37,651 nt of DNA from a virus (IMGVR_UViG_3300020352_000013:1-37651), one strand, 5' to 3'. Positions 684 to 36,449 are shown, counted from the stretch's first letter. Notes: a model not told the origin generated them from the sequence alone. Made by a program: numbers and translations.

Positions 684-2558
684 ATGAAAATACTATTCTT
701 TGATATAGAAACCAACGGCATTGAGGACTTCACTAATTTGAGTGACCTTGAGGTCTGTCATTGCATATCCATCTATGATCCTATCGCCAGTAAGATGATT
801 ACATTTGAAGGTGAAGGGATAAAGGAAGGACTTAATATGTTAAGCAAAGCAGACAAGATCGTAGGACATAACGTCATAGGCTTTGATCTACCTGCGTTAG
901 CTAAGTTGTATAACTTCCATCCACCCTTGGTCCGAGTACAAGACTCTCTCGTAATGAGTAGATGCTTGAACCCTGACCTTAGAGAAGATGACTTCAAGCG
1001 TAAGGACTTTGATCCTAAGCTAGTAGGTAGTCACAGCTTGAAGGCATGGGGACACAGGATGGGTCAGATGTTAAAGCTTACTTACGGTGAGAACGAGGAT
1101 GCTTGGGACAGCTACAACGAAGAGATGAAGAAGTACTGTGAACGAGATGTGTTAGTAACTAAGACCTTGTACGAATACTTAATCAAGCTAGAACCTAGCA
1201 AGAAGATGTTAGCTATTGAACATTGGTTTGCTTACATCATCAGGTTACAAGAGAGCCAAGGCTTTGCGTTTGATATAGATAAAGCGGAACAACTAGAGCA
1301 GAAGTTAAATGGCATACGAGCAAAGCTACAAGATCAGCTGCAAAAAATGTTTGAACCTACTGTTAACAAGATGAAGACTCCGCAGGGATACTCCTTGACT
1401 ATTAAACATGTGGATGGAGTGGAGATTATCAATGCACCTACTAAAGTAGAACTTAAAAAGATACTGAAGAGTAGAGGCATGGTACAGAACTTAGTCAACA
1501 AAGCTGAACCACTTGATGTAAAGGAAGAGATCATACCTTTTAATCCTGGTAGTCGTAAGCAAATCAAAGAAAGACTTGAGGCTTTAGGTTTTGAAATACC
1601 TCTATCGAATGACGGTAAGACTGTGAAGATCGATGAGTCTACACTTAAATCAATAGACCATCCATCTGCCAAGCTTTTGCTCGATTATCTGTTAGTCGTA
1701 AAAAGACTTGGGCAATTAGCTGAAGGCAAGAATGGATGGCTAAGATTAGTTAAGGATGGCAGAATCCACGGACGAGTCAATACAAACGGAGCAGTGACAG
1801 GACGGTGTACTCATAGTCTACCTAACCTAGCACAAGTACCAGCTACAAGAGCAGAGTATGGCGAGGAGTGTCGTTCTTTATTCATAACTAAAAAAGGTTA
1901 CAAGCTAGTAGGTTGTGATGCTAGTGGGTTAGAGTTAAGAATGCTTGCACATTACCTGTCTACTTGGGACGGAGGGGAGTACTCTAAAGCTATACTGGAA
2001 GGAGACATACACACTGTGAATCAGAAGGCAGCAGGGTTAAAGACTAGAGACCAAGCTAAGACATTCATCTATGGATTCCTTTACGGAGCAGGGGATGCAA
2101 AGATAGGTGAGATAGTAGAGGGTACAGCACAAGATGGTAGTAGATTAAAGAAGAAGTTCCTGTCTAACTTACCAGCGTTAAAGATACTGAAACAATTAAT
2201 CAAAGAGAAAGCAGAACAGAACGGATGCTTAACAGGATTAGACGGTAGGATTCTACCGATAAGAAGTGAACACGCTGCACTCAATATGTTACTGCAATCA
2301 GCTGGTGCTGTACTCATGAAGGTGGCTTTGATTAAACTACACACCAAGCTAACAGACATCGGATGGCAACACGGAAGAGAGTATTCATTTGTAGGTAACA
2401 TACACGATGAGTTCCAAGCTGAAGTTAAACCTCAGTTAGTAGAGACATACGGAGAGTTAGCTGTTAAAGCAATCCAGTCAGCAGGTAGAGAGTTAAAGAT
2501 GAAGTGTCCTATGGACGGTGAATATAAAGTAGGAGAGTCATGGGCAGAGACGCACTAA
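684..2558 (+). CDS. gp5: T7-like family A DNA polymerase
   Basis: Exonuclease motifs FDIETNG, GHNVIGFD, YCERDV; polymerase motifs DASGLELR, RDQAKTFIYGFLYG, IHDE. Confidence 0.97.
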   Translation: MKILFFDIETNGIEDFTNLSDLEVCHCISIYDPIASKMITFEGEGIKEGLNMLSKADKIVGHNVIGFDLPALAKLYNFHPPLVRVQDSLVMSRCLNPDLREDDFKRKDFDPKLVGSHSLKAWGHRMGQMLKLTYGENEDAWDSYNEEMKKYCERDVLVTKTLYEYLIKLEPSKKMLAIEHWFAYIIRLQESQGFAFDIDKAEQLEQKLNGIRAKLQDQLQKMFEPTVNKMKTPQGYSLTIKHVDGVEIINAPTKVELKKILKSRGMVQNLVNKAEPLDVKEEIIPFNPGSRKQIKERLEALGFEIPLSNDGKTVKIDESTLKSIDHPSAKLLLDYLLVVKRLGQLAEGKNGWLRLVKDGRIHGRVNTNGAVTGRCTHSLPNLAQVPATRAEYGEECRSLFITKKGYKLVGCDASGLELRMLAHYLSTWDGGEYSKAILEGDIHTVNQKAAGLKTRDQAKTFIYGFLYGAGDAKIGEIVEGTAQDGSRLKKKFLSNLPALKILKQLIKEKAEQNGCLTGLDGRILPIRSEHAALNMLLQSAGAVLMKVALIKLHTKLTDIGWQHGREYSFVGNIHDEFQAEVKPQLVETYGELAVKAIQSAGRELKMKCPMDGEYKVGESWAETH

Positions 2559-2611
2559 CATACGATTACTACTTGTCGCTAGCTAGCTTGTATGATACAA
2601 CTGATTTAAAT

Positions 2612-3010
2612 ATGCCTTCATCAAACCCACAGCGGATAGGAGCTATAGCAGAATCAAGGTTTACAACGGAATGCTTAGAGAGAAACTTCGAACCTCACTT
2701 ACCTACCACACCTATGCCTTGGGACTTCATTGTCACCTGCCCTGCTGGTACTTTAAAGGTACAGATTAAATCAACAACGAGGAAGTCTTCAGCTAATACT
2801 TATATGGTTTCAACGAGTAAAGGATTGGCAAGTAAAGAACCAATGTGTGATACAATAGATGTAGTCGGATGCTATGTCATACCTGAGAAGACATGGTGGA
2901 TGATACCAAGAAAAGAAATAAAAGGATTAGGTGTAAAGTTAAACATCCTACCTAACAGTAAATCAAAACATAAAAAATACCAAGAGAACTGGAGCATATT
3001 CTATGAGTAA
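2612..3010 (+). CDS. PD-(D/E)xK endonuclease, probable free-standing homing endonuclease (PDDEXK_5 / I-Ssp6803I-like)
   Basis: GAIAE...PWDFIV...KVQIKST pattern; ATG 2612 preferred over 2540, which overlaps the polymerase. Confidence 0.75.
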   Translation: MPSSNPQRIGAIAESRFTTECLERNFEPHLPTTPMPWDFIVTCPAGTLKVQIKSTTRKSSANTYMVSTSKGLASKEPMCDTIDVVGCYVIPEKTWWMIPRKEIKGLGVKLNILPNSKSKHKKYQENWSIFYE

Positions 3011-3932
3011 AACAACCATACTAATTGACGCTGATGTGTTAGCATTTGAATCGTCAATCATAGCACAAGAAAATATACAATGGGAAGAGGAGCTTTGGAC
3101 TGTACACGCAGACATGGCAGTAGCAAAGAACAGAGTCATTGGAAGGATAGAACAATTCAAAGACTTACTTAAAGCAGATGAAGTAGTGTTAGCACTTAGT
3201 GACCGAGCAAACTTCAGAAGGAAACTATTCCCTGACTACAAGTCTAACAGAAGAAAGTCAGTACTGCCTGTCATCCTAAAGCCTATGAAGGAATGGATGA
3301 TTAATGAACTAGACGCACAGCTGTGGGCTAATGTAGAAGCAGATGATGTACTCAGTATCCTAGCAACTGAAAGACCTAACAGACTAGACAAGCGTATCAT
3401 CGTATCAATCGACAAGGACTTCAAGAGTGTACCAGGAATCTTCTATGATTATAACAGAGAGGAATACCATGAACCTACTGAAGAAGAAGCAGATAACTTC
3501 CACCTACTACAATCACTAATGGGAGATTCAACAGATGGATTCAGTGGAGCGAAGGGGGTAGGAGCTGTGACTGCTAAGAAGTGGTTGGACGAACACGGTT
3601 ACACTTGGGAATCTGTTGTAGCTTTGTACGCTAAGAAGGGACAAGACGAACAGGAAGCCTTGATGAATGCTTGGATGGCAAGACTATTAAGAAAACAAGA
3701 ATACAATAAGAAACAAAAACAAATAACAAAACTATGGACACCAAAGAACTACCAAACTCTGGAGAGAAAGAACATTATGCCACTGGTGCGGAGCGTGACA
3801 GGGCTACTGGACGAGGACGATTCAGCCTTATTCCTCCAATCGCCCTTCGATCCCTTGCCAAACGATTTGAAGAAGGAGGCAAACTCTACGGAGACAACAA
3901 CTGGCACAACGGATTCCCTCTCAGTAGATTAA
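3003..3932 (+). CDS. gp6: 5'-3' exonuclease
   Basis: LIDAD, YKSNR, EADDV, SIDKD, GDSTDGFSGAKGVG motifs; follows the polymerase. Confidence 0.93.
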   Translation: MSKTTILIDADVLAFESSIIAQENIQWEEELWTVHADMAVAKNRVIGRIEQFKDLLKADEVVLALSDRANFRRKLFPDYKSNRRKSVLPVILKPMKEWMINELDAQLWANVEADDVLSILATERPNRLDKRIIVSIDKDFKSVPGIFYDYNREEYHEPTEEEADNFHLLQSLMGDSTDGFSGAKGVGAVTAKKWLDEHGYTWESVVALYAKKGQDEQEALMNAWMARLLRKQEYNKKQKQITKLWTPKNYQTLERKNIMPLVRSVTGLLDEDDSALFLQSPFDPLPNDLKKEANSTETTTGTTDSLSVD

Positions 3933-4111
3933 TAGATAGCATGAGCAGACATCTGTTAGCATTGAGTGAAGGAGATGATAAAGAAGATCACGCAGGTGCT
4001 ATACTGTGGAACGCTAGTGCTTTCCTGTGGACCGAGGATCAGATTAACAAAGGTAAGCTACCACAAGAACTAGATGATAGGAGTTATACATGGACTGGAG
4101 ACACGCAATAA
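3734..4111 (+). CDS. DUF5664-like (dATP/dGTP diphosphohydrolase N-terminal domain) protein
   Basis: GAERD..GRGRFSLIPP, YGDNNW..G, SMSRHL, EDHAGAILWNA pattern. Confidence 0.75.
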   Translation: MDTKELPNSGEKEHYATGAERDRATGRGRFSLIPPIALRSLAKRFEEGGKLYGDNNWHNGFPLSRLIDSMSRHLLALSEGDDKEDHAGAILWNASAFLWTEDQINKGKLPQELDDRSYTWTGDTQ

Positions 4112-7497: not shown

Positions 7498-7947
7498 ATG
7501 AAGCCTTGGACTCCATCTTTTTTCTTGCCAGTGTTGGTTCTGGTTCTTTTGGGTGGATGTTCCAAGGCTTCTTTTTATCCGTTAGCAGGTAGTGTAGGTG
7601 GTGCAACTATTGGTAGTCTTGGTGGTCCTGGTCCTGCTGCTGGTGGTGCTGCCCTTGGATGGGGACTAGGAGAGGGTGCTAAGTTAATGGAAGAGAACAA
7701 GGGATTAGCTAACAAAGTAAAAGCTATATCCGAAGGAGATGTACAGGAACTTGTACAACAGCAGTTAGATGAGAGTATGACTAATGGTTTCTTTGACAAT
7801 ATGTTAGATGAAGTCTATGGTTTTTTAAAACTATGCCTAGTAGGTGTAATACTTTGGAACATCGTACCTATCTTTTATACTAGATATGTGCAGAAAAAAT
7901 CTAACAATAATGATAAATCAACTAAGAAGACTAAAAAGAATTTATAA
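7498..7947 (+). CDS. Predicted lipoprotein with glycine zipper and C-terminal TM segment (u-spanin-like topology)
   Basis: Hydrophobic signal ending LLGG-C, GxxxG-rich segment, C-terminal hydrophobic helix, basic tail. Confidence 0.6.
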   Translation: MKPWTPSFFLPVLVLVLLGGCSKASFYPLAGSVGGATIGSLGGPGPAAGGAALGWGLGEGAKLMEENKGLANKVKAISEGDVQELVQQQLDESMTNGFFDNMLDEVYGFLKLCLVGVILWNIVPIFYTRYVQKKSNNNDKSTKKTKKNL

Positions 7948-8026
7948 TAACTTGGACAAGAAGGAGAAAGCTATTGTCTTGACTGTTCTATGTTTAGGTG
8001 GAATTATAATACTTAACTTACTTTAA
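7910..8026 (+). CDS. 38-aa single-TM peptide (not in ORF track)
   Basis: MINQLRRLKRIYNNLDKKEKAIVLTVLCLGGIIILNLL; basic N-terminus, hydrophobic C-terminus. Confidence 0.5.
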   Translation: MINQLRRLKRIYNNLDKKEKAIVLTVLCLGGIIILNLL

Positions 8027-8028
8027 TA

Positions 8029-8151
8029 GACAATTAGTATAACTAATGTCAAGACCCACTGCGGTGGACAATCTCGAACGAAGGTTACAACGAAAGTCGC
8101 AAAACAAATACACAAACATTAATAACAAAATACATAAGGAGATAATATATC
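8029..8151 (+). promoter_or_regulatory. Structured leader and RBS of the capsid gene
   Basis: Hairpin GAC(A)ATTAG/CTAATGTC 8029-8050; CCAC-TGCG-GTGG 8056-8067; A-rich spacer; TAAGGAG SD. Confidence 0.55.
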
Positions 8152-19300: not shown

Positions 19301-20897
19301 AGGTATGGAAGCAATTAACTCAGGTATCTCTGACTCTAAAGGCATAGCTAAATATGTTGAAGATAAACTAAGTAAAGTAGTGACTGTTGGTGGACAGGTT
19401 ATGTCTGAAGAAGCTTTAATAAGAGAAGCTGTAAAGCAAGCTGATGACTTAGGTTTAATAGGTCAAAAGTTCGCTAAGAAAAGAGCTGCTCACATTAAGA
19501 AGTATGTTGACGATAACTTTGATGAGGACGCTTCTAACCTTGCAGCTTATGCTCTAGAAGAAGCTAAATACTTCACACACACTAGAGAGTTAGAAGAAGG
19601 GACTTTAGGAAAAGGCATACAAAACCTAACAAAGAACTTTGCGTTTGCTAGATTTGTTCTACCTTTTGTTCGTACTCCTTCAAATCTTTTAAGTTTTGCT
19701 TTAGAGAGGTCTCCCTTGGGATTGCCTTACAGGATTCCAGGTACAAATAAAAAATTGAATGTACCAGGATTAAGGGCAGAAGCGGAAGCTATGAGAGAAG
19801 GATTGAAGTCTAGTGATCCTGTAGTTAAAGCAGCAGCTAGAGGTAAGATTGTAACAGCTTTTACAGCTGCTGGTTTGTTTTACGACATGGTGTTTAATAA
19901 TAATAACACATTTCCAACCGTTACAGGAGGCGGACCTAAAGATGAGAAGCAAAAGAAGATACTAGCGGAGACTGGTTGGAGACCTTACAGCATAAAAATG
20001 GGTGATACATATTACAGTTACCAACGGTTAGACCCAATCGCTACTTTACTAGGCATCAGTGCTGATATGAGTGAGATGATGAAGGAAAATCAAGAAGCTA
20101 ACGAAGAAGGATTGGAGCAAGTAGGTATAGCAATGGCAACAGCTCTAGCTCGTAATGTAGGTAATAAATCTTACCTAGCTGGTGTTCAGTTATGGGCAGA
20201 TGCATTCAAAGACCCAGAAAGATTTGGAGAGAAGTTAGGTAGAAACTATGTTAGTTCTTTTGTTCCTAATGTACTTTCTCAAATGCAAGACTATGATAAG
20301 CAATCTATGAGAGAAGTGAGGAGTATTGCGGATGCTGTTTTGAAAAAAATGCCTGGAGGTAGAGATATGCTTGATCCTAGACGAAATATATTAGGAGAAG
20401 AGAAAATAATTGATTACGGTACAATGGGATTCATTAATCCTGTAGCTACTTCAAAAGAAAAAGATGATGAAGTATTACAGGAAATGGCAGACTTACAATA
20501 TGCGTTCAGGCAACCTAGTCCTAAAGTATCAAACGGTAATGTTGATTTATTAAACTTTGTTAACAATAAAGGAAGAACTGCTTACGATAGAAGTCTTGAT
20601 CTATTACAAACAGTAACAGTAGGTGGACGTACTTTAAGACAGACTTTAAAACGATTGATTAACTCTGCTCAATATCAAAGACTTCCTGGTTTTTCTGCTG
20701 AAGTAGGTGTTGATAGTCCTAGAGTACAAGAGATAACTAAAGTGTTAAGACGATACAGAAAAACAGCTAAAAGAGAAATGTTAAAAGAATTTCCTGATGT
20801 AGCATCACAAATAAATATTGTAGATCGTGCTTTAAAACTTAACAGGCAAGGTGTTAACAGACAAGAAGTGCTTGAACTTTTATCACAAACAAACTAA
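16395..20897 (+). CDS. Large internal virion (gp16-like) protein with HExxH module
   Basis: 1500 aa in the gp16 position; NSILSGPRT, LPFVRTPSN, PYSIK.GD.YYSYQRLDP motifs; internal HELWH...EYFAE. Confidence 0.8.
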   Translation: MEETEEELLRDPTATIGLGGSDTLPKQQTQKAPQVQEKEKEEDLDFFDYAGDIALAPFRGIEGMLNGAYNLADMIAFDVLPDLDTRFLGTSKTTAGSLVEGVAQFASGFVPIFGAAGKIGALAKAGTVARGVAAGAVTDFVAFKGQEDRLSNLIQQFPELQNPVTEFLAHDANESEVEGRLKNVLEGLILEGAIGGTVTLFMKSLRALKAGKKVRDVDGGGADEVNKATSDSLGGGKDFADIPEFKEDTSLIQKELDQDKTRLDELLKKKEEGKATSADETRISMLENRIEGKEADLRVLGDVRTADVKDRVRVAEERELQERVEELDETLEDFDATVERTPRPFKTYEEEAMMDIIPKGADTLKSRLMKKFPIKGADPQDVADVEKFIDVMGKRLFGDVSLSVTNKIPSAGRYNFGNNLLQIRQSVIDEGGIKRTMVHELWHGLSRYLPKTDVTSLTKQFDKARRDYIRSFGVDLDDTVDPSSLLKKTIPKELERFLKGKHTSENYRFKDVDEYFAEEMTDAFLKKLDEKDLAPSGTLKRIAQEVAIMFKDMFASLKSKLGIDQRQKIFNDFLKQRNVTKRAEAPLDFGKTFAEMPDFKPKIKTDPEWQQWTNAVLKGESPTLPRLEVVGDIDSAHKILTEKYANNPELLKKFDEAPADALDEEFAALFEMGAQSIKDRRKIRIESEIFKDLLKGSNERLMKAVKQFEDTESLQSEAALRNQLSEFVEIYDYYRQMGSEDSKNLAMRRQKKPISRKIGLEKSELQNTALVREFINNQAGGMSPKKAVKLIKEMYDPNNPEATIKKVLGIAKKAQGKSLLDMTTEYWINSILSGPRTQAVNLLGNLLTQALGAAEMTAGAVISGNMPLAKAALALSFDWNLYREAFSAAGKTLITGREVLDVGSRTMETSRQAIGESIDFDPLGKGSKNIDRNAINTLGTVINLPARGLLTGDEFFKQIAFRRAARLKAGMEAINSGISDSKGIAKYVEDKLSKVVTVGGQVMSEEALIREAVKQADDLGLIGQKFAKKRAAHIKKYVDDNFDEDASNLAAYALEEAKYFTHTRELEEGTLGKGIQNLTKNFAFARFVLPFVRTPSNLLSFALERSPLGLPYRIPGTNKKLNVPGLRAEAEAMREGLKSSDPVVKAAARGKIVTAFTAAGLFYDMVFNNNNTFPTVTGGGPKDEKQKKILAETGWRPYSIKMGDTYYSYQRLDPIATLLGISADMSEMMKENQEANEEGLEQVGIAMATALARNVGNKSYLAGVQLWADAFKDPERFGEKLGRNYVSSFVPNVLSQMQDYDKQSMREVRSIADAVLKKMPGGRDMLDPRRNILGEEKIIDYGTMGFINPVATSKEKDDEVLQEMADLQYAFRQPSPKVSNGNVDLLNFVNNKGRTAYDRSLDLLQTVTVGGRTLRQTLKRLINSAQYQRLPGFSAEVGVDSPRVQEITKVLRRYRKTAKREMLKEFPDVASQINIVDRALKLNRQGVNRQEVLELLSQTN

Positions 20898-20909
20898 TAA
20901 TAGATTACC

Positions 20910-24290: not shown

Positions 24291-24548
24291 ATGGCAAACA
24301 TTCTACAACAGATCGGTACAGTAGTTAAAAGCAAACTTGATGATAAAGTCGACAAGACTGATGCAACAGGTGATTTTATTAAAGCTGTACTAGGAATAGA
24401 CACTGACACAACAACACCAACAGTTGCACTTGAATCCGATATTACCACAAGAACAGGAGATGCTAACGGCACTTTGTTTTTTGGTTCTGACTCCGCTGAC
24501 TTCTACGTTTATAACGGAGGAACTTGGTATCAATTCAACAACTCTTAA
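24291..24548 (+). CDS. Small fibre-module protein
   Basis: Paralogous to 24061..24249. Confidence 0.7.
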   Translation: MANILQQIGTVVKSKLDDKVDKTDATGDFIKAVLGIDTDTTTPTVALESDITTRTGDANGTLFFGSDSADFYVYNGGTWYQFNNS

Positions 24549-24559
24549 AACAATATAAT

Positions 24560-25366
24560 ATGAGCGATATAGCATTAATTAATGACTCCCAGCAATCTGC
24601 GATTGTTACTAATGGGATAGGTAAGAACGGAGAGATATACATGAAAGCAGCAGGTAGTACGGACGCAGGTGCTCTTGTTGTATATGATAGCGGTAACTGG
24701 AGGAAGTTTGCAGATGAAGCTAGTTCCTTTAGTAACGACTACAGCGTAGACTTTGATGGCACTAATGATTATATGGATGCAGGTAATGTCACAGCAATCA
24801 ACAGCGTAGCTAATGCGTCATATTCATTTTGGTATAAAACTAGTGCGACAGGTAAAGTAGGTCTGATTGGTGGAGGAGTAGGAACTTCCGCTTATCATTG
24901 GAGCGACGGAAATATGTATGTTCACTCTTGGGTTTCCAATCTTTCCCACCCAATTACAATACCCACATTGGGAGCTTGGCATCACATCGTTTGTACTTTT
25001 GAGGCGAGTGGTTCTAAACTGTATCTTGATGGCAGCTTACAAAGTACAGTAGACCACGGTGACACAACTAGCAGCGATGCAGGTACTAATTTTCAAATAG
25101 GTAGAGTGCCTCATTACAGCATACCTGACGGTCAAAAACTTATAGACGAGGTTGCTCTTTTCACCTCTACATTATCATCCTCGGATGTTACAGCAATCTA
25201 CAACTCAGGAGTCCCTGCTGACTTAACTTCGTACTCTCCTGTCGGTTGGTGGAGAATGGGAGATAACGATAGCGGAACAGGTACTACAATCACAGACCAA
25301 GGTAGCGGAGGTAACGACGGTACACTCACAAATGGTCCTACCTTCTCCTCAAGCGTACCTTCCTAA
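24560..25366 (+). CDS. LamG / concanavalin A-like lectin domain protein (copy 1)
   Basis: FDGTNDY, SFW, WHHIV.T, LYLDG, IG, IDEVALF...LS....IYN; ATG 24560 preferred. Confidence 0.88.
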   Translation: MSDIALINDSQQSAIVTNGIGKNGEIYMKAAGSTDAGALVVYDSGNWRKFADEASSFSNDYSVDFDGTNDYMDAGNVTAINSVANASYSFWYKTSATGKVGLIGGGVGTSAYHWSDGNMYVHSWVSNLSHPITIPTLGAWHHIVCTFEASGSKLYLDGSLQSTVDHGDTTSSDAGTNFQIGRVPHYSIPDGQKLIDEVALFTSTLSSSDVTAIYNSGVPADLTSYSPVGWWRMGDNDSGTGTTITDQGSGGNDGTLTNGPTFSSSVPS

Positions 25367-25616: not shown

Positions 25617-26414
25617 ATGGCTACTTTAAATACAGTTACATCTTCCACTCGCCCAGCATCTCCTACAGCAGGGGAAGCTTACTTTGAAACAGATACTAAT
25701 AAGATCGTAGTTTGGAATGGTTCGTCCTGGACGGAGATTGTTTCCGACGGTACTTTGAGTTCTTACAGTAATGCATACAGCGTAAGCTTTGATGGTACTA
25801 ATGACTACATTCAACTCCCCAATGGTGTATTAAGCACATTTACAGGTACTGCCTACACGATAAGCATGTGGTACAACTTAGATGTGGTTGGAAGTTATCA
25901 AGAAATTTTTACTGCTGGTAGTAATTTGCAAATATACTTTAGACCTAGAACTACACAGGTAGGACTAGAACTTTACGTTAATGGAGCGGGTAGGATAATT
26001 CAACCCTCTCCATATAGTAATGTGGGTTCATGGGTACATGGTTGTATTTCAGTCGATACGACAGGCACAAGTACAATGTACATTAATGGTTCTTTTAGTG
26101 CTTCTTCTCCTAGTGTACCTCAACCTACTAGCGTTTCAAATCCTGTAATAGGGTCTTTTAATGGAGCGAGTAACTTTTTGAACGGATTGGTTGATGAGGT
26201 AGCTATTTTCAACTCAGCCCTTTCCGCATCCAATGTAACAGCAATTTACAATAGCGGAGTACCTAATGACATCTCATCTCTCAGTCCTGTAAATTGGTGG
26301 AGAATGGGTGAAAACGATGGTGGCAGTGGCACTACAATTACAGACCAAGGCAGCGGTTCTAACGATGGAACACTTACTAACGGTCCTACATTCTCAAGTT
26401 CAGTCCCTAGCTAA
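25617..26414 (+). CDS. LamG / concanavalin A-like lectin domain protein (copy 2)
   Basis: Same motifs as copy 1, near-identical C-terminus. Confidence 0.88.
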   Translation: MATLNTVTSSTRPASPTAGEAYFETDTNKIVVWNGSSWTEIVSDGTLSSYSNAYSVSFDGTNDYIQLPNGVLSTFTGTAYTISMWYNLDVVGSYQEIFTAGSNLQIYFRPRTTQVGLELYVNGAGRIIQPSPYSNVGSWVHGCISVDTTGTSTMYINGSFSASSPSVPQPTSVSNPVIGSFNGASNFLNGLVDEVAIFNSALSASNVTAIYNSGVPNDISSLSPVNWWRMGENDGGSGTTITDQGSGSNDGTLTNGPTFSSSVPS

Positions 26415-26701: not shown

Positions 26702-27940
26702 ATGCCAGTAGATAATACATCTATATTCTATAAAATCGGTCAGTCTACAAAGTCTGCGATTGCTGTAGAAGAAACAAGAGCATTGGCTGCAGAAGCAGTC
26801 TTGCAAACGAACATCACCGCTGAAGCTTCTTCAAGAGCCAGTGCTGATACTACCCTTCAAAGCAATATCGACAGCGAAGCTTCAAGCCGTTCGTCTGCTG
26901 ATACTACGTTGCAAAGCAACATTACTGCTGAAGCTTCTTCGAGAACTTCTGCTGACTCTGCTTTACAAAGTGAAATCGACGCTACTCAAAGTGGTGCTGG
27001 TCTTGGAACTGGTGGTTCTTATACTGCTAACGCTTCTACTAACTACCTTACTTCCGTAGGTAACTTGGTTGCAGCTGACGAAGCTCTTGACGCACAATCT
27101 AAAACAAATGCTGACGCTATCTCTTCTGAAGCTAGCTCAAGAGCATCTGCTGATTCCGCTTTACAAGCTGAGATTGACGCTGAAGAAACAGCTCGTGCAG
27201 CTGCCGACAGTACTCTTCAATCGAACATTACTAGTGAAGCTTCCTCCAGAGCCAGTGCTGACTCAACTTTACAGAGCAACATTGATTCTGAAGAGACTGC
27301 TAGACAATCTGCTGACTCCACGCTTCAAACAAACATTGATGACGAAGAATCCGCTAGGCAATCCGCTGACACAACCTTACAGTCAAACATTGACTCCGAG
27401 GAAACTGCTCGTATAGCTGCTGTTTCTGGTGAAGCTACTGCACGTAGTTCTGCTGATACAACACTTCAAAGTAACATTGATAGTGAAGCTTCAACAGCTC
27501 GTGCTGCTGAGTCTAACCTTAACACTGTTAAAGCTAACCTTGCTGGTGCTGCTTTTACTGGTGCTGTAAGTGGTACTGATCTTACCCTTAGTGGTAACTT
27601 GACTGTTAACGGTACAACTACTTCCGTTCAAACCACTAACTCCGAGATTAAGGATTCGATTCTTTTAATCAATGACGGAGCTGCTGGTTCATCGAACAAT
27701 GCAAACGACGCTGGTCTTATTATCGAACGTGGTACTGGAGACGGTGGAAACATCGCTGCTATCTACGACGAAGGTGAAGACATGTTTGCTTTCTATAAAA
27801 CATCCGCTGGTTCTAGTTCTGTTGACATCTCTGATGATGACTCAAGTGCTGAACTTATCGACGTTAACTGTAACGACGTGGTTCTTGGAGACGGTAACAA
27901 TCTTGGTGATTTAGCAGACTTTACTGCTGCAATGGCTTAA
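26702..27940 (+). CDS. Fibrous protein with 18-aa coiled-coil repeats and fibre-type C-terminal domain
   Basis: EASSRASADxTLQSNI repeats; LTLSGNLTVNGTTT...D..I.IN...AGLIIERG. Confidence 0.8.
   Translation: MPVDNTSIFYKIGQSTKSAIAVEETRALAAEAVLQTNITAEASSRASADTTLQSNIDSEASSRSSADTTLQSNITAEASSRTSADSALQSEIDATQSGAGLGTGGSYTANASTNYLTSVGNLVAADEALDAQSKTNADAISSEASSRASADSALQAEIDAEETARAAADSTLQSNITSEASSRASADSTLQSNIDSEETARQSADSTLQTNIDDEESARQSADTTLQSNIDSEETARIAAVSGEATARSSADTTLQSNIDSEASTARAAESNLNTVKANLAGAAFTGAVSGTDLTLSGNLTVNGTTTSVQTTNSEIKDSILLINDGAAGSSNNANDAGLIIERGTGDGGNIAAIYDEGEDMFAFYKTSAGSSSVDISDDDSSAELIDVNCNDVVLGDGNNLGDLADFTAAMA
26770..27510 (+). repeat. 54-bp / 18-aa tandem repeat in two blocks
   Basis: About a dozen E(A/E)(S/T)xRxSAD(T/S)xLQxNI units, interrupted by GAGLGTGGSY...; coordinates approximate. 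Confidence 0.85.
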
Positions 27941-27947
27941 GACTGTC

Positions 27948-28109
27948 ATGGCGAAAAGTAAAAAGAGTTCTTCTATTACGATTCGTCTTCCCGATGACTT
28001 ACAAAAAGCAGAGGTCGCTGGTATAGCTAAAAAGTTAAATATCAGCACCTCTGCTCTAGTAAGTGGGTGGATCAACGAAATACTGAAGAGTTTGAAAAGA
28101 GAGAGTTAA
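27948..28109 (+). CDS. Ribbon-helix-helix (Arc/CopG-like) protein, 53 aa (not in ORF track)
   Basis: MAKSKKSSSITIRLPDDLQKAEVAGIAKKLNISTSALVSGWINEILKSLKRES. Confidence 0.7.
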   Translation: MAKSKKSSSITIRLPDDLQKAEVAGIAKKLNISTSALVSGWINEILKSLKRES

Positions 28110-28115
28110 TACAAT

Positions 28116-28361
28116 ATGAAAACGCAAGAAGAATTAGGTGAGCTACAAGTTCTATTAACAGATACTTTAAAGAAGGGGATCAAGCTGATGCACGTCACTG
28201 AGGAATACAATCCTTCCCTTCTTAACTGTGCTAGACAACTACTCAAGGATAACGATGTTGTTCTTATGAGTGGTAAAGATACTCCACTTAATGACTTGCT
28301 AGGAGAGGTTCTACCTTTTGAAGAGAACCCAGAACTTAAACAAAAAGTAATTACAAAGTAA
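28116..28361 (+). CDS. gp18: Terminase small subunit
   Basis: LNCARQLLKDN...LPF motif, precedes the large terminase. Confidence 0.8.
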   Translation: MKTQEELGELQVLLTDTLKKGIKLMHVTEEYNPSLLNCARQLLKDNDVVLMSGKDTPLNDLLGEVLPFEENPELKQKVITK

Positions 28362-28383
28362 TAACATCAAAGAGAGAGAAAGT

Positions 28384-28421
28384 AGGGTCATCGCTGAGTA
28401 GTCGGAGGTGACCCTCTTTTT
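28384..28421 (+). terminator. Intrinsic terminator between terminase genes
   Basis: AGGGTCATC/GGTGACCCT stem followed by CTTTTT. Confidence 0.65.
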
Positions 28422-28428
28422 GTTACAA

Positions 28429-30108
28429 ATGACAAATAAATTAGCACAACTGAGAGACTTCCGTAACTTCCTGTATGTAGTTTGGAAACACCTTAACCTA
28501 CCTGATCCTACAGCTTTACAATACGATATAGCTGACTTCATGCAACACGGTCCTAAGCGATCTGTTATCATGGCGTTCCGTGGTGTAGGTAAGTCCTGGA
28601 TATGTTCTGCCTATGCTGTACATCAACTACTACTAGACCCTACTAAGAACATACTTGTTGTATCTGCTTCTAAGAACCGCGCTGATGACTTCTCCACTTT
28701 TACATTGAAAATCATACACGACATTCCTGTTCTTCAAGGACTAATCCCTAAGAACGATCAAAGGTTCTCTAAGATAGCTTTTGATGTAGGACCTGCACCT
28801 GCTGCTCACGCTCCTTCCGTTAAGTCCCTCGGTATATCCTCTCAGTTAACAGGTAGTCGTGCAGACATTATCATTGCTGACGATATAGAAGTTCCTAACA
28901 ACTCTGCTACTCAAGGTATGAGAGATAAGCTAGATGAACAAGTAAAAGAGTTTGAAGCTATTATAAAGCCCTTAGACACCTCTAGGATTCTCTTCCTAGG
29001 CACACCTCAATGCGAGGATTCAATTTATAACAAACTGCGTGAGAGAGGCTATGACGCTCGTATATGGACCTCTGAGTACCCACAACAAGATTTAGTACTT
29101 AAGAACTACGACAATGACATAGCACCCTTTATACAAGAACAGATAACAGAAGAGACAGTAGGACACACCACAGAGCCTCTTAGGTTCTCTGATCTAGACT
29201 TAGAGGAGCGTAAGCTATCGTACGGTCGTACAGGGTATGCTTTGCAGTTCATGCTTAATCCTAGACTCTCTGATGCTGACCGCTATCCGTTAAAGATTAA
29301 CGATCTGATTATAACAGATATTGATGGTGACCTAGCTCCTGAGAAGATTATATGGTCCAGTGATCCTGATAACGAAAACAAAGACCTTCCCAATGTAGGA
29401 CTAGGGGGAGATAGATACCACAGACCTTCTAAGACTTTAGGTGATATGGTAGAGTATACTGGGTCTGTTCTTTCTATTGACCCTAGTGGTAGAGGTAAAG
29501 ATGAAACTGGGTACGCTGTGGTTAAGATGCTTAACGGTCAACTCTTTGTTCCTGATGCTGGTGGTCTAAAAGGTGGGTACGATGAACAAACACTTAAACA
29601 ACTCATTCACATCGCTAAGACTAATAAGGTTAACAAGATTATCATAGAGTCTAACTTTGGTGATGGTATGTTCATGGAACTACTTAAACCTTTGTTGATG
29701 ACTTCCTATCCTTGTTCCGTTGAAGAAGTAAGACACTCTAAACAAAAAGAACTTAGAATCATTGATGTCCTTGAACCTGTCCTTAATCAACATAAACTTA
29801 TCATTGATCCTTCTGTTGTTACTAAAGACTATAAGAGTGCTCAAGGGTATCCTATAGAACATCAAGCTAAGTATATGTTGTTCTATCAACTTAGTCGTAT
29901 AACAAAAGATAAAGGCTCTCTTAATCACGATGATAGATTAGATGCTCTTTCTATTGCTGTTAACTATTGGGTAGAACAAATGAACCAGTCTGTAGACAAT
30001 AACATTAACTCTAGGAAACAAGAACTACTTGATAAAGAGTTAACAAAGTTTACTGATAGCTTCCATAAGAGAAGTGTTAAAGGCTCTAGGGCTATGCTTT
30101 GGTCGTAA
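28429..30108 (+). CDS. gp19: Terminase large subunit
   Basis: AFRGVGKSW, LTGSRADIIIADDIE, LGTPQ, IDPSGRGKDETG, ESNFGDGM, HDDRLDAL. Confidence 0.97.
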   Translation: MTNKLAQLRDFRNFLYVVWKHLNLPDPTALQYDIADFMQHGPKRSVIMAFRGVGKSWICSAYAVHQLLLDPTKNILVVSASKNRADDFSTFTLKIIHDIPVLQGLIPKNDQRFSKIAFDVGPAPAAHAPSVKSLGISSQLTGSRADIIIADDIEVPNNSATQGMRDKLDEQVKEFEAIIKPLDTSRILFLGTPQCEDSIYNKLRERGYDARIWTSEYPQQDLVLKNYDNDIAPFIQEQITEETVGHTTEPLRFSDLDLEERKLSYGRTGYALQFMLNPRLSDADRYPLKINDLIITDIDGDLAPEKIIWSSDPDNENKDLPNVGLGGDRYHRPSKTLGDMVEYTGSVLSIDPSGRGKDETGYAVVKMLNGQLFVPDAGGLKGGYDEQTLKQLIHIAKTNKVNKIIIESNFGDGMFMELLKPLLMTSYPCSVEEVRHSKQKELRIIDVLEPVLNQHKLIIDPSVVTKDYKSAQGYPIEHQAKYMLFYQLSRITKDKGSLNHDDRLDALSIAVNYWVEQMNQSVDNNINSRKQELLDKELTKFTDSFHKRSVKGSRAMLWS

Positions 30109-31245: not shown

Positions 31246-31440
31246 ATGAATTACGATTATAAAACCTTATTGACTCGTTATAGATTGCAAGGCAATTGGA
31301 TAACCAGTGAAAGCCAAAATTTAGAGGAATCTATGCTAAACTATCGCAAGCTTTTAAAATCAAGATTGATTAAGAATCGACCAGATAGATATTCTTTTCA
31401 ATATCGCTTCAAACATCAAAACAATTGGATTGCATCATAA
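31246..31440 (+). CDS. Early hypothetical protein
   Basis: First ORF after an A/C-rich leader; TAATG coupling to the next gene. Confidence 0.6.
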   Translation: MNYDYKTLLTRYRLQGNWITSESQNLEESMLNYRKLLKSRLIKNRPDRYSFQYRFKHQNNWIAS

Positions 31441-32144
31441 TGAAACCTAACGGATTTATAATACATGAGGGAACAAAGAACGGCTCAAAATATGCTGTAA
31501 TTGCTACCCTTAAAACAAGTAACAGAAAAACTGGCAACATGATTCAATTATGGATTCTATTGTCAGATTATTCACCAGTTGACGGCGTTAAATCAGGGCT
31601 TGATGCTTCTACCATTTGTACAGGTTGCAAGTTTGCCAGTGGTAACGGCTGTTACGTCAATGTCGGACAAGCTCCGAATAGTATATGGAAAGCTTACAAA
31701 AAGAATTCTTATCCTAAACTTGATCCATTCTTATATGACAGTGTTTTTAATGGTCGCAAAGTAAGATTCGGAGCTTATGGTAATCCATCTTTAATTCCTC
31801 TTTCTATCATTAAAATGATCACTGAATCTTGCGATGGGTGGACAGGATATTTTCACGATTGGAAAGAGATGTCCAAAGAACGAGCTACAGCATACGGTAA
31901 TTACTTTATGGCATCGACTGAAACAAACGACTCAGTAAGACGAGCAAAAGAAAAGAACTTACGTTATTTCCATGTATCACCCGACCAGCCAAAGGATACC
32001 ATAGAATGCCTTGCGGATAGTAAAGGTTTATCGTGTGATCAATGCCAGCTTTGCAAGGGCAATCGTATTGGTGCAAAGTCAATATGGATCAATCCACACG
32101 GAAGTAAGAAGAAAAGAGCAATCGAACAAGCAATAAGTAATTAA
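31440..32144 (+). CDS. Cys-rich early protein (GP88-like)
   Basis: N.KTG, CTGC...GCY, VRFGAYG.P, WTGY.H.W, MAS.E, C......CDQCQLC, PHG. Confidence 0.65.
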   Translation: MKPNGFIIHEGTKNGSKYAVIATLKTSNRKTGNMIQLWILLSDYSPVDGVKSGLDASTICTGCKFASGNGCYVNVGQAPNSIWKAYKKNSYPKLDPFLYDSVFNGRKVRFGAYGNPSLIPLSIIKMITESCDGWTGYFHDWKEMSKERATAYGNYFMASTETNDSVRRAKEKNLRYFHVSPDQPKDTIECLADSKGLSCDQCQLCKGNRIGAKSIWINPHGSKKKRAIEQAISN

Positions 32145-33379: not shown

Positions 33380-33851
33380 ACTTAAATTCACTGAAGCAGA
33401 AAGTTTTACTTTGTTAAGTGAACATTTCCCAGACCTTCAAAAGAACGGAGCGAGGAAACAACTTAGAGAAGCTTACGACTGGGTTGAAGGTTATGGAGAA
33501 ACATATGATTGGGATAATGATAGATGTAAAAGCGATGTGTTTCCTCCTTTAATACCTGATGCTACTCGTCTTATCAAACTTGAAGGAGGTGAAGATGAGC
33601 GTGATTTTATCTTTCAGTTTTGGGAGATAGAAAATAATTTCCCAGTAAATGAACTTAAACTAAAGCGATTGGAGAAGTGGTTATTCTATGAGCTTGATCC
33701 ATTTGATGTTGGAGTGTTTGAACTTTGGCGTTGTGATAAATGGGGAGGTGGACACAGACGCTTATTCAGTAACATCGACTGGTATCTTTATAAAGGATAC
33801 GAGAGCTACGAAGAATTACATTCAAAATTTAAGGAGGAGGACGAAACATGA
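33369..33851 (+). CDS. Early hypothetical protein
   Basis: 160-aa acidic and aromatic ORF overlapping its neighbours. Confidence 0.65.
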   Translation: MTTKLKFTEAESFTLLSEHFPDLQKNGARKQLREAYDWVEGYGETYDWDNDRCKSDVFPPLIPDATRLIKLEGGEDERDFIFQFWEIENNFPVNELKLKRLEKWLFYELDPFDVGVFELWRCDKWGGGHRRLFSNIDWYLYKGYESYEELHSKFKEEDET

Positions 33852-34093
33852 ACTGGGAAGACTTTGATCATAACGCTTTTATCTCTTCCACCTTTCAAGA
33901 GCAAGTAGCAAAAGCATACGATGCGTTTTGGGATAAGAACCAATTAGGTTATGACAAGAACGGAAAGAGAATACGAACAGAGTTGAGCCGTCCTAGACCG
34001 AGAGAGTTTAGAGAGCAAATCATGAGGGAAGCGTTATATAAAAAGTCTTTAATTGAAAACCATTTGAACGATGAAAGAAGAAAAAAAGATTGA
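33848..34093 (+). CDS. Early hypothetical protein
   Basis: AAGGAGG SD, ATGA overlap. Confidence 0.65.
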   Translation: MNWEDFDHNAFISSTFQEQVAKAYDAFWDKNQLGYDKNGKRIRTELSRPRPREFREQIMREALYKKSLIENHLNDERRKKD

Positions 34094-36449
34094 GGAAAGC
34101 ATGATCTCATGGGGCAAGGCACGATATAGAAAAGCCCAAGAGATTTATAAAAAGCACGGTTTGAACTCCGAGTTACCAGCTTATAAAAAGCTAGGCAGAG
34201 AGGTACACGTCCCGATTGAGCAAGCAATTAACAAGTTCTTTGTAGACAACGCACGTCCCAATGCTCCTGTACCTGTTTGGTTACCTTTTATATGGGACTT
34301 AGAGCCTGGACTTGTTGCGTTCTTAGGAGTGAAGGTACTGTTTGATATCCTACCTAGTGAACCGTTCATAAGTGACGCATCCTTTCAAGTAGCAAAAGCT
34401 TTAGAAGATGAAGTACGTGTCCGTTACTTTAAAGAGTACGTGTCCGAAAGCGATTGGTTGCTATTGAAACGAGATCAAAAGGATGTACTGACTAGGAATA
34501 AATTTGTTAATAAGTTTTGGGATAAAGAAAGGAAGTACCACAAACAAGGACGATATAAAAGGTTTGAACTTTGGAGTCAACGGAACAAGATAATGTTAGG
34601 GTCTTGGCTTATTGAATTGATAAGGATGCAAACTAATTTGTATCACGTTAAGATTAAGTACTCTAGTCTTAGACAAAAGAGAAAGACACTAGCTCCTAAC
34701 AAGGACTTGTATGCTTGGGTGGATAAGTACGATAAGAACTGTGAAGTTATCCGTCCGTTCTACTTGGCTACTCCAAAACCACCTATTGACTGGGTAGATA
34801 ACTACGGAGGAGGATATAATTCTGAAGGACTACCTACTCTACCTATCATGAAGATCAAGAACAACGATGGTATAAAGCATCGTGACTTGTCCGTAGCTTA
34901 TGAACCTCTTAACCGACTGCAACGAGTAGCTTGGAAGATTAACCCTAAGATGTTGAACTTGATGCAATGGGCTTGGAGTAAAGGCTTAACGATTGGAGGG
35001 ATGGAGAAGAGCGACTTGATTGAACCGTTAGAAACTATACCTAATCTAGCAGAGACTGATCCCGAAGCATTTAGTGAGTGGAAGAGAAGGGCGAAGGAGA
35101 TATACGAGTACAACTTTCGTAGTAACGGACAACGAATGAGGTGCTTAAAGATTCTTAACGTAGCAAAGAGATACAGTGAGATGGACGAGTTCTACTTTCC
35201 TTATCAAATGGATTACAGAGGAAGAGTGTATGCCATACCAAGCTATGTTAACCCACAATCCTGTGACTTTGGAAGGAGTGTGCTACAATTTGCTGAAGGT
35301 GTCGCGATAAATAACTACGAGGACAGTCGATGGTTACGTGTTCACGGAGCTAATGTGTTTGGAGTTAAAGGTAGCTTTGTTAAACGCTTGGACTGGGTAG
35401 ATAAGAAGAAGGACTTGATACTTGAATGTGCTAATGATCCTATGGAGTGTACTTGGTGGCATGAAGCGAGTGATCCGTGGGCATTCATACACTTTTGCTT
35501 TGAGTTTGCAGAGTTTAAAGAACAAGGATGGGGATTCAAGACGAAGTTACCTTGTCACATGGACGCTAGCTGTAACGCTATACAAATCCTTAGCCTACTA
35601 ACAAGGGACGAACAGTCAGGACATCACGTTAACTTGTTACCTGACCGTAAACCACAAGACATATACCAGGAAGTAGCCGATCAAGTATACGATAGGTTAA
35701 TGAAAGACAAGAGTAAGAATAGTTTAGCTGGTGACTGGTTAAAGTTTGGAATAGACCGTAGCTTTACTAAGAAGATAGTGATGTGTAAACCTTTTGGTAT
35801 GAATGGATACACTAGTAAGGATGCACTTGAAGAAGCTGTTGTTAAAAAACTAAAGCAAGGTATAGGTAGTCCGTTCAGTAAGGAGGATTACAACGAGGCT
35901 ATGATCTACCTAGCTAGTTTGATAAACGATAAAGCGAACGCTCTTATCCAACCACACATCGAATTGATGAGATGGTTCAAAAGAATAGCAAGGACAGATG
36001 AGCCTTTGACTTGGACTACACCCTTCGGATTGGAAATTGTACAAGCTCTATACGATCAAACAATTATTAAAGTACACAGCATATTGAACATGCAAAATAC
36101 TATCTTAGCTTTTAACAATAGACAGAAGGGAGTGAGCAGTAAGAGGATGGCACGAGCAATCGTACCTAATTTTATACACAGCTTAGATGCAAGTGTGATG
36201 ATGGAATTAGCTTGCAAAAGTAATTATTCTATAGCATCTATACATGACAGCTTTGCAACTCAAAGCCCGAACGGACCGAAGATGCACCAACAATTAAGAG
36301 AGATTTACACAGAACATTTTAGCGATGATCTTATCAACAAGTTCAAGGATGAGATTGAAGCACAGCGAGGATGTACACTGGAAGACAGCCCTGAACTTGG
36401 CACACTAGATGTGTCGGCACTAAACGACTGCCAGTATATATTCTCATAA
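34071..36449 (+). CDS. gp1: Single-subunit T7-like RNA polymerase
   Basis: DYRGRVY, DASCNAIQ (motif A), DIY, RSFTKKIVMCKPFG (motif B), PNFIHSLDA, IHDSF (motif C). Confidence 0.97.
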   Translation: MKEEKKIEESMISWGKARYRKAQEIYKKHGLNSELPAYKKLGREVHVPIEQAINKFFVDNARPNAPVPVWLPFIWDLEPGLVAFLGVKVLFDILPSEPFISDASFQVAKALEDEVRVRYFKEYVSESDWLLLKRDQKDVLTRNKFVNKFWDKERKYHKQGRYKRFELWSQRNKIMLGSWLIELIRMQTNLYHVKIKYSSLRQKRKTLAPNKDLYAWVDKYDKNCEVIRPFYLATPKPPIDWVDNYGGGYNSEGLPTLPIMKIKNNDGIKHRDLSVAYEPLNRLQRVAWKINPKMLNLMQWAWSKGLTIGGMEKSDLIEPLETIPNLAETDPEAFSEWKRRAKEIYEYNFRSNGQRMRCLKILNVAKRYSEMDEFYFPYQMDYRGRVYAIPSYVNPQSCDFGRSVLQFAEGVAINNYEDSRWLRVHGANVFGVKGSFVKRLDWVDKKKDLILECANDPMECTWWHEASDPWAFIHFCFEFAEFKEQGWGFKTKLPCHMDASCNAIQILSLLTRDEQSGHHVNLLPDRKPQDIYQEVADQVYDRLMKDKSKNSLAGDWLKFGIDRSFTKKIVMCKPFGMNGYTSKDALEEAVVKKLKQGIGSPFSKEDYNEAMIYLASLINDKANALIQPHIELMRWFKRIARTDEPLTWTTPFGLEIVQALYDQTIIKVHSILNMQNTILAFNNRQKGVSSKRMARAIVPNFIHSLDASVMMELACKSNYSIASIHDSFATQSPNGPKMHQQLREIYTEHFSDDLINKFKDEIEAQRGCTLEDSPELGTLDVSALNDCQYIFS

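Follow-up and report, generated by a model that had tools for sequence, protein, structure and literature searches.

Phenylalanine at the position of T7 Tyr639 is a genuine and rare active-site variant, shared by a whole lineage, of a well-known family of enzymes, the T7-like RNA polymerases (RNAPs). T7 RNAP senses ribose through Tyr639, and its Y639F form is the usual tool for making 2'-fluoro RNA. The natural Phe, residue 575, is found in the RNAP of the window, by which we mean the whole stretch of DNA analysed: a virus record of 37,651 bases, cut within the primase/helicase gene, whose T7-like genes share one strand.

The window phage is Autographiviridae-like, one of a widely distributed marine group of uncultured T7-like phages, with its own single-subunit RNAP and co-directional T7-like replication and head-tail genes. 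The genes run in the order RNAP, ssb, endonuclease, primase/helicase, DNA polymerase A, exonuclease, portal, scaffold, capsid, tail, internal virion proteins, fibre and terminase, an order shared with Roseobacter CRP and pelagiphage Autographiviridae and with the nearest named genome, uncultured phage MedDCM-OCT-S45-C18 (Ayaqvirus, AP013544). The latter resembles the window in its DNA polymerase (52%), terminase (64%) and capsid (60%), but its RNAP has Tyr. Sequencing runs containing at least half of the RNAP gene's words were labelled marine metagenome, marine plankton metagenome or metagenome. Among 50,697 phage records no RNAP was more than 31% identical, and the best match in a motif-region search was 53%. 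A host search via prophages returned 24 pattern matches in GTDB contigs, none of them a relative, and no integrase was found among the 42 window ORFs scanned. The clade could not be placed in the AG groups of PMC12361551, six contig names giving no match in the readable supplementary files of that survey.

The RNA polymerase and its active site

The product of the RNAP gene shares about 25% identity with T7 RNAP; its T7-like identity is given by full-length homology and a right-hand fold with an N-terminal domain. Its features, in window coordinates, are:

34071-36449, + strand: T7-like single-subunit RNAP gene (792 aa; PF00940 1e-77, PF14700, phrog_414 6e-179; fold matches T7 RNAP)
35211-35225, + strand: DxxGR motif with Arg385 (T7 R425), intact, by alignment
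35556-35585, + strand: motif A with catalytic Asp498 (35562-35564) and Ala503 (35577-35579) at T7 Gly542, by alignment
35757-35798, + strand: motif B / O-helix R563-G576 (T7 R627-G640), by alignment; helix 563-575 in the model
35772-35774, + strand: Lys568 (T7 R632), variable in the clade (K5 R2 N1 Q1)
35784-35792, + strand: Cys572-Lys573-Pro574 (T7 T636-L637-A638), Lys/Arg-Pro being common to Tyr-bearing sister groups
35793-35795, + strand: Phe575 codon TTT (T7 Tyr639 position), by alignment, contigs of 4/4 runs and 10/10 clade clusters
35799-35804, + strand: Met577-Asn578 (T7 S641-K642), constant across the Phe clade; candidates for co-adaptation
35814-35816, + strand: Ser582 (T7 F646), invariant in the clade and found in <5% of Tyr enzymes
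36060-36113, + strand: predicted hairpin of the specificity loop, residues 664-681 (strands at 664-669 and 676-681; pLDDT low over 672-683)
36165-36182, + strand: segment with His703 (36177-36179; T7 H784), intact, by alignment
36240-36254, + strand: motif C with catalytic Asp726 (36246-36248; T7 D812), intact, by alignment

An AlphaFold2 model of the RNAP (110-row alignment; pLDDT 90.6, pTM 0.84) matched the T7 elongation complexes 1msw, 1s76 and 1s77 in Foldseek at TM 0.87, and its helix 563-575 terminates at F575. An earlier note, made from the sequence alone, had placed Phe (TTT, residue 575) on Y639 in a motif B without gaps. This placement was reproduced by a gapless phmmer alignment of motif B to T7 RNAP PDB chains, by a multiple alignment with T7 gene 1 from NC_001604, and by the position in the model helix; misalignment was rejected on these grounds. 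The same note took motifs A and C and the H784 equivalent to be intact, and so they are: D498 (T7 D537), H725-D726 (H811-D812), H703 (H784), R385 (R425) and K433 (K472) are kept, as are R563, K567 and G576 of the motif B pattern Rx3Kx7-G, M571, and R383/R385 of DxxGR. It had missed Ala503 at T7 Gly542; the window protein also has K568 at T7 R632. Because the Tyr of the motif B consensus Rx3Kx7YG is replaced by Phe575, the enzyme is classed as a variant rather than a typical T7-like RNAP.

The RNAP is under purifying selection with its catalytic residues intact, dN/dS being 0.055-0.088 against four relatives at 85-95% identity. A second, Tyr-bearing RNAP covering for the Phe enzyme was sought and rejected: the gene is the only RNAP among the 42 window ORFs scanned, and one RNAP match was found in each of five near-complete Phe genomes; the relative G005 gives one match. 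Identity with the N4-like virion RNAP was rejected as well, the window enzyme having 792 aa in a 37.7-kb genome as opposed to about 3,400 aa in a 70-kb genome.

Occurrence of Phe at the 639 position

Nucleotides 35793-35795 were identical in the assembled contigs (not raw reads) of all four runs aligned over 35700-35900. The agreeing contigs include a divergent relative with 17 other differences, and three of the four runs belong to studies other than the possible source study. Confirmation of the codon, which the earlier note had proposed, was thus obtained on contigs, with TTT in every run and no TAT. Its other proposal, an alignment of motif B across homologues, found Phe to be clade-wide: among the best 120 of 277 homologue clusters, 10 have Phe and the other 110 have Tyr. 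The 10 Phe clusters are the 10 best matches, 51-100% identical, and represent 587 sequences. Nine of them have 105 listed members, and all 89 that cover the motif have Phe, encoded by both TTT and TTC. Because the contigs agree in all four runs and Phe marks the whole clade, F575 is not an error; sequencing error was rejected on this agreement, on the 10 clusters and on the use of both codons.

Phe also occupies 67 of 67 clade loci in IMG/VR (TTT 61, TTC 6), a biased count, since Phe is present in one of the two seeds used. Unbiased tests of Phe against Tyr are the 120 homologue clusters, a search with the Tyr version of the clade motif, and the counts of Tyr in sister loci and in new cluster representatives. 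The Tyr-version search gave three matches, none of them an RNAP, and thus no reversion was seen. Tyr was present in 79 of 80 loci of the nearest sister group, the remaining locus being without the motif, and in 140 of 143 new 50%-cluster representatives (Phe 2, fragment 1). A scan of IMG/VR for the Phe motif found 97 stretches, made up of 72 from this clade, 11 from other RNAPs and 14 unrelated. With a broader pattern, the estimate was 2300 Tyr, compared with 11 Phe beyond the clade, and all 120 Tyr matches that were fetched read as motif B. Tyr is therefore present in about 96-97% of T7-like RNAP stretches in IMG/VR and Phe in roughly 3-4% (~2300 vs 83, a rough figure from unlike patterns), in agreement with the earlier statement that the Tyr is normally highly conserved.

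Residues beside Phe575 and the conserved core

Conservation was assessed at 51 columns that are at least 95% conserved among 242 Tyr RNAPs, with 639 included by construction. The Phe clade departs at one of these near-invariant columns, namely 639, and a second Phe lineage (lineage B, below) departs at 10. In the window protein three columns differ: F575, A503 (T7 G542) and I473. Ala503 is found in 5 of 67 clade loci and in 1 of the 242 Tyr enzymes, a second sugar-pocket change atop Phe in the window's sub-lineage. The G542 position is the steric gate in DNA polymerases, and G542 and H784 are also described as bearing on selection (PMC11617373).

The earlier description of the neighbouring CKP as atypical was overstated, since Pro is the majority residue at T7 638 (207 of 242 Tyr enzymes) and Lys or Arg stands at T7 637 in 32 of the 242, including all 18 nearest Tyr relatives; the Cys572 equivalent occurs in six. 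Met577 and Asn578, each present in 9/9 clade proteins and in none of the 242 Tyr enzymes, are the more distinctive neighbours. At the T7 R632 position, Arg is present in 191 of the 242 and Lys568 in the window; R632 and Y639 recognise ribose in T7, R632 contacting it in the pre-insertion state (PMC9836923). No invariant replacement Tyr was found nearby: position 565 is F4/Y5, and position 580 is Y8/F1, where Tyr is ordinary (95/242 Tyr enzymes).

Origins of Phe in other lineages

Three trees were built with the motif B columns removed; they were quick searches without bootstrap, with some long branches and rows thinned by hand. In all three, a single branch separates the Phe clade from the rest (SH-aLRT 100), and support for its grouping with Tyr sisters is 98-99. 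The 43-row tree contains four Tyr/Phe changes, all forced by starred branches and placed at the window's clade, lineage B, lineage C (L171/P0281) and P0292. The number of Phe origins depends on sampling, because trees with fewer neighbours gave two and three changes. Tyr-to-Phe thus appears to have arisen independently about four times in T7-like RNAPs.

The three further lineages are likewise T7-like and uncultured: lineage B (L169-L179; genomes G001-G003), lineage C (L171/G004 and P0281) and P0292. All three are without Met577 and Asn578. Lineage B genomes have 63-65% GC; their nearest cultured RNAP, that of Synechococcus phage S-SRP02 (40%), has Tyr and shares part of the 10 departures of lineage B. 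None of the four genomes from lineages B and C (completeness 91-100%) has a family A DNA polymerase, and G001-G003 are without T7 primase/helicase as well. Groups of Autographiviridae without DNA polymerase have already been described (PMC12361551). Genome G004 has a replication module with ERF and DUF6291, encoded on the opposite strand.

Gene content and promoters

Gene content was compared among eight Phe, three Tyr-sister and one lineage C genomes. Phe and Tyr-sister genomes share core genes; two families without a Pfam match are limited to the Phe clade and occur in most of its members (window 7498-7947 and 33848-34093). A stand-alone dATP/dGTP diphosphohydrolase N-terminal domain ORF (PF18909; window 3734-4111) overlaps the exonuclease ORF's final 200 nt. 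It is 72-96% conserved across Phe and sister genomes (7/8 and 3/3, respectively), and dNTP depletion by its product as a Phe-specific partner was rejected because all three Tyr sisters have it. An altered DNA polymerase was rejected as a partner in the same way, its motifs being ordinary. One of the 12 genomes (L306:7839-9330, equivalent to G005 27839-29330; RNAP 87% to the window) has, between primase/helicase and DNA polymerase, a QueD/PTPS gene, a nucleoside 2-deoxyribosyltransferase-family gene and a 242-aa ORF without a Pfam match, possibly a deazaguanine-type DNA modification module. Elsewhere in the window are a 412-aa protein with 54-nt (18-aa) repeats, a likely coiled fibre (26702-27940), flanked by two laminin-G-domain genes (24524-25366 and 25617-26414); a 239-aa early gene (phrog_2554; 31425-32144) with two Cys clusters, found in 5/8 clade genomes; and a PD-(D/E)XK endonuclease ORF (PF11645; 2540-3010) between DNA polymerase and exonuclease, common to the Tyr sisters.

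No repeated promoter-like motif above chance was found in the window or in the intergenic DNA of seven genomes, a search that would overlook one or two promoters present in single copy. In the clade, the specificity loop varies widely, is hydrophobic and lacks the basic residues that other RNAPs commonly carry at T7 positions 746 and 748; judging from these residues, promoters may be recognised in an unusual way. In three RNA runs, the share of the RNAP gene's words present is only 5-6%. A conserved two-hairpin leader precedes the major capsid gene (8021-8117) in both Phe and Tyr-sister genomes. Compensatory change is seen in 2/13 of its predicted pairs (seven sequences), with a folding z-score of only -1.4, and Rfam gave no match to it or to the rest of the window; it is possibly a translational control element or a promoter. 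A sigma-70-like element, recognised by eye, lies before the tail fibre gene (20872-20901) in 8/8 clade genomes, with a variant in the three sisters, and suggests that host RNAP also drives a late gene.

Comparison with engineered and natural enzymes

In T7 RNAP, Y639F lowers the rATP/dATP selection from about 120-140-fold to 5-7-fold (PMC9836923, citing earlier work), an effect that simulations attribute to the hydroxyl (PMC4223216). The same substitution improves 2'-F incorporation by Syn5 RNAP (Y564F; <30% identical to T7; PMC4538805) and by SP6 RNAP (Y631F; PMC13286181). The substitution is thus the same as that of the window in divergent RNAPs; those are laboratory-made, their wild types having Tyr. 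The window RNAP shares with engineered T7 Y639F (and Y639F/S641A) the Phe at the O-helix tip, the fold (TM 0.87) and the equivalents of R425, K472, D537, R627, K631, M635, H784 and D812, and the S641 hydroxyl is absent from it too; it differs in being natural and fixed, and in Met577, Asn578, Lys573, Lys568 and Ala503.

Natural Tyr-to-Phe substitution is not unique to the window: besides the three other T7-like lineages, Y678F was noted in 2010 in the N4-like Pseudomonas phages LUZ7, LIT1 and PEV2 (Ceyssens 2010, supplementary figure legend; PMC3715699). Both are natural changes of the motif B Tyr, but the N4-like phages have a 3,398-aa virion enzyme with hairpin promoters and a two-subunit enzyme, whereas the window has a 792-aa T7-type RNAP. 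The accessible text of PMC4496689 has no passage on Y678. Our literature search, which covered mainly listings and abstract openings of openly available papers, turned up no description of a naturally occurring Phe in T7-like RNAPs. The Y639 variants in the accessible portions of PMC11617373 are all engineered, a mined RNAP described in PMC13029058 has Tyr, and 'Y639' does not occur in the main text of PMC12361551, a survey of >1200 marine Autographiviridae.

Interpretation of the Phe enzyme

In E. coli, rNTP pools are some 10-30 times dNTP pools; the host of the window phage may differ. Because this genuine and rare substitution runs through a whole clade of otherwise intact enzymes, and because the same change relaxes 2'-selection in T7, Syn5 and SP6, the likeliest reading, held with modest confidence, is that this is the phage's ordinary transcribing RNAP and that relaxed 2'-OH selection is tolerated since rNTPs outnumber dNTPs. 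The sole T7-type RNAP of the phage would transcribe phage genes as T7 RNAP does. By analogy with the engineered enzymes, Phe would retain ring stacking at the O-helix tip and the driving of translocation, with only the hydroxyl that senses the 2'-OH lost. Taking the 5-7-fold selection of the T7 mutant and the 10-30-fold rNTP excess as inputs, we estimate that transcripts would be RNA with a dNMP roughly every 50-200 nt, compared with every 1,200-4,000 for the wild type, a load that would be tolerable. Met577, Asn578 and Ser582 would then represent repacking that fixed this state, not a new sugar sensor. The earlier suggestion of mixed RNA/DNA or 2'-modified products would then hold in part: in vivo the likeliest product would be RNA containing occasional dNMPs, with 2'-modified products confined to reactions in vitro, where 2'-F and 2'-deoxy NTPs should be accepted better than by an F575Y form. 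Loss of the hydroxyl is compatible with transcription in vivo, since T7 Y639V emerged from a library enriched for in vivo activity (PMC4551944) and Y639F in E. coli gave ssDNA-dependent editing of only 3.4e-7 (PMC11775612). About four Phe origins also fit a tolerated state. Against relaxed selection stand the three clade-specific neighbours, the failure to find a multi-copy phage promoter, and T7 P266L/Y639F/H784A, which yielded no translatable mRNA in a cell-free system (PMC8155940; a triple mutant, the cause presumed by its authors). The retention of Tyr in the great majority of T7-like RNAPs also counts against it, implying that loss normally costs something, and the lack of reversion in the clade suits compensation or benefit.

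Compensation would mean that T7-like ribose selection is maintained through His703 (H784) and Arg385 (R425), with Lys573, Met577, Asn578 and Ser582 reshaping the O-helix tip. We regard this as possible though rather doubtful. The strict association of Met577 and Asn578 with the clade speaks for it, as do long fixation across 51-100% identity without reversion, the rarity of Phe elsewhere, the description of H784 as a 2'-OH contact (PMC11617373, PMC13286181), and the N4-like phages, in which natural Phe enzymes sustain viable cultured phages (PMC3715699). However, the engineered Tyr-to-Phe mutants keep H784 and R425 yet lose selection; Lys573 predates Phe, being shared with Tyr sisters, and by helical spacing would face away from the R563/K567/M571/F575 face; Met577 and Asn578 do not recur in the other Phe lineages; and loss of the S641 hydroxyl in T7, as in Y639F/S641A, increases rather than reduces dNTP use (PMC8155940). 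That relaxed selection is itself useful, for instance in mixed RNA-DNA origin primers, nuclease-resistant transcripts or the use of modified templates, seems to us quite unlikely. Strict fixation with repeated origins, the lack of an obvious promoter set together with the hydrophobic specificity loop, the absence of family A DNA polymerase from lineages B and C, and the QueD-like module of one clade relative could be read in its favour. Yet the window's clade keeps a full primase/helicase and a normal replisome, its DNA polymerase steric-gate and motif B residues match those of Tyr sisters (7 clade, 3 sister genomes), and neither the diphosphohydrolase-domain ORF nor the QueD-like module, nor any other nucleotide-metabolism gene, tracks Phe; loss of DNA polymerase is known from other Autographiviridae (PMC12361551), and close relatives of lineage B have Tyr. 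A bolder version, to which we give slightly more weight while still thinking it unlikely, is that the ribose gate was given up on purpose: the enzyme's cellular products would be RNA in which deoxynucleotides are frequent, or RNA-DNA primers, the co-evolved O-helix (Met577, Asn578, Lys573, Ala503) would make the enzyme a better synthesiser of 2'-modified RNA and ssDNA than engineered T7 mutants, and lineages B and C, without DNA polymerase, would be extreme cases. An error, or a decaying or inactive polymerase, is very improbable: the second rare motif A change, Ala503, and a codon check made on contigs rather than raw reads leave it some room, but Phe throughout the 587 clustered sequences and the 89 listed members, in both codons, the dN/dS below 0.1 and the retention of all catalytic residues speak against it.

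Why nature keeps Tyr almost everywhere, though Y639F is active, was not previously testable with natural examples. About four natural Tyr-to-Phe lineages, each with close Tyr-bearing sisters, now provide them, and the window's clade is otherwise unchanged in its conserved core. If selection is relaxed in these enzymes, they would offer a naturally stable scaffold for making modified RNA, and would indicate that phage mRNA tolerates dNMPs; if selection is retained, they would reveal a second way to read the 2'-OH.
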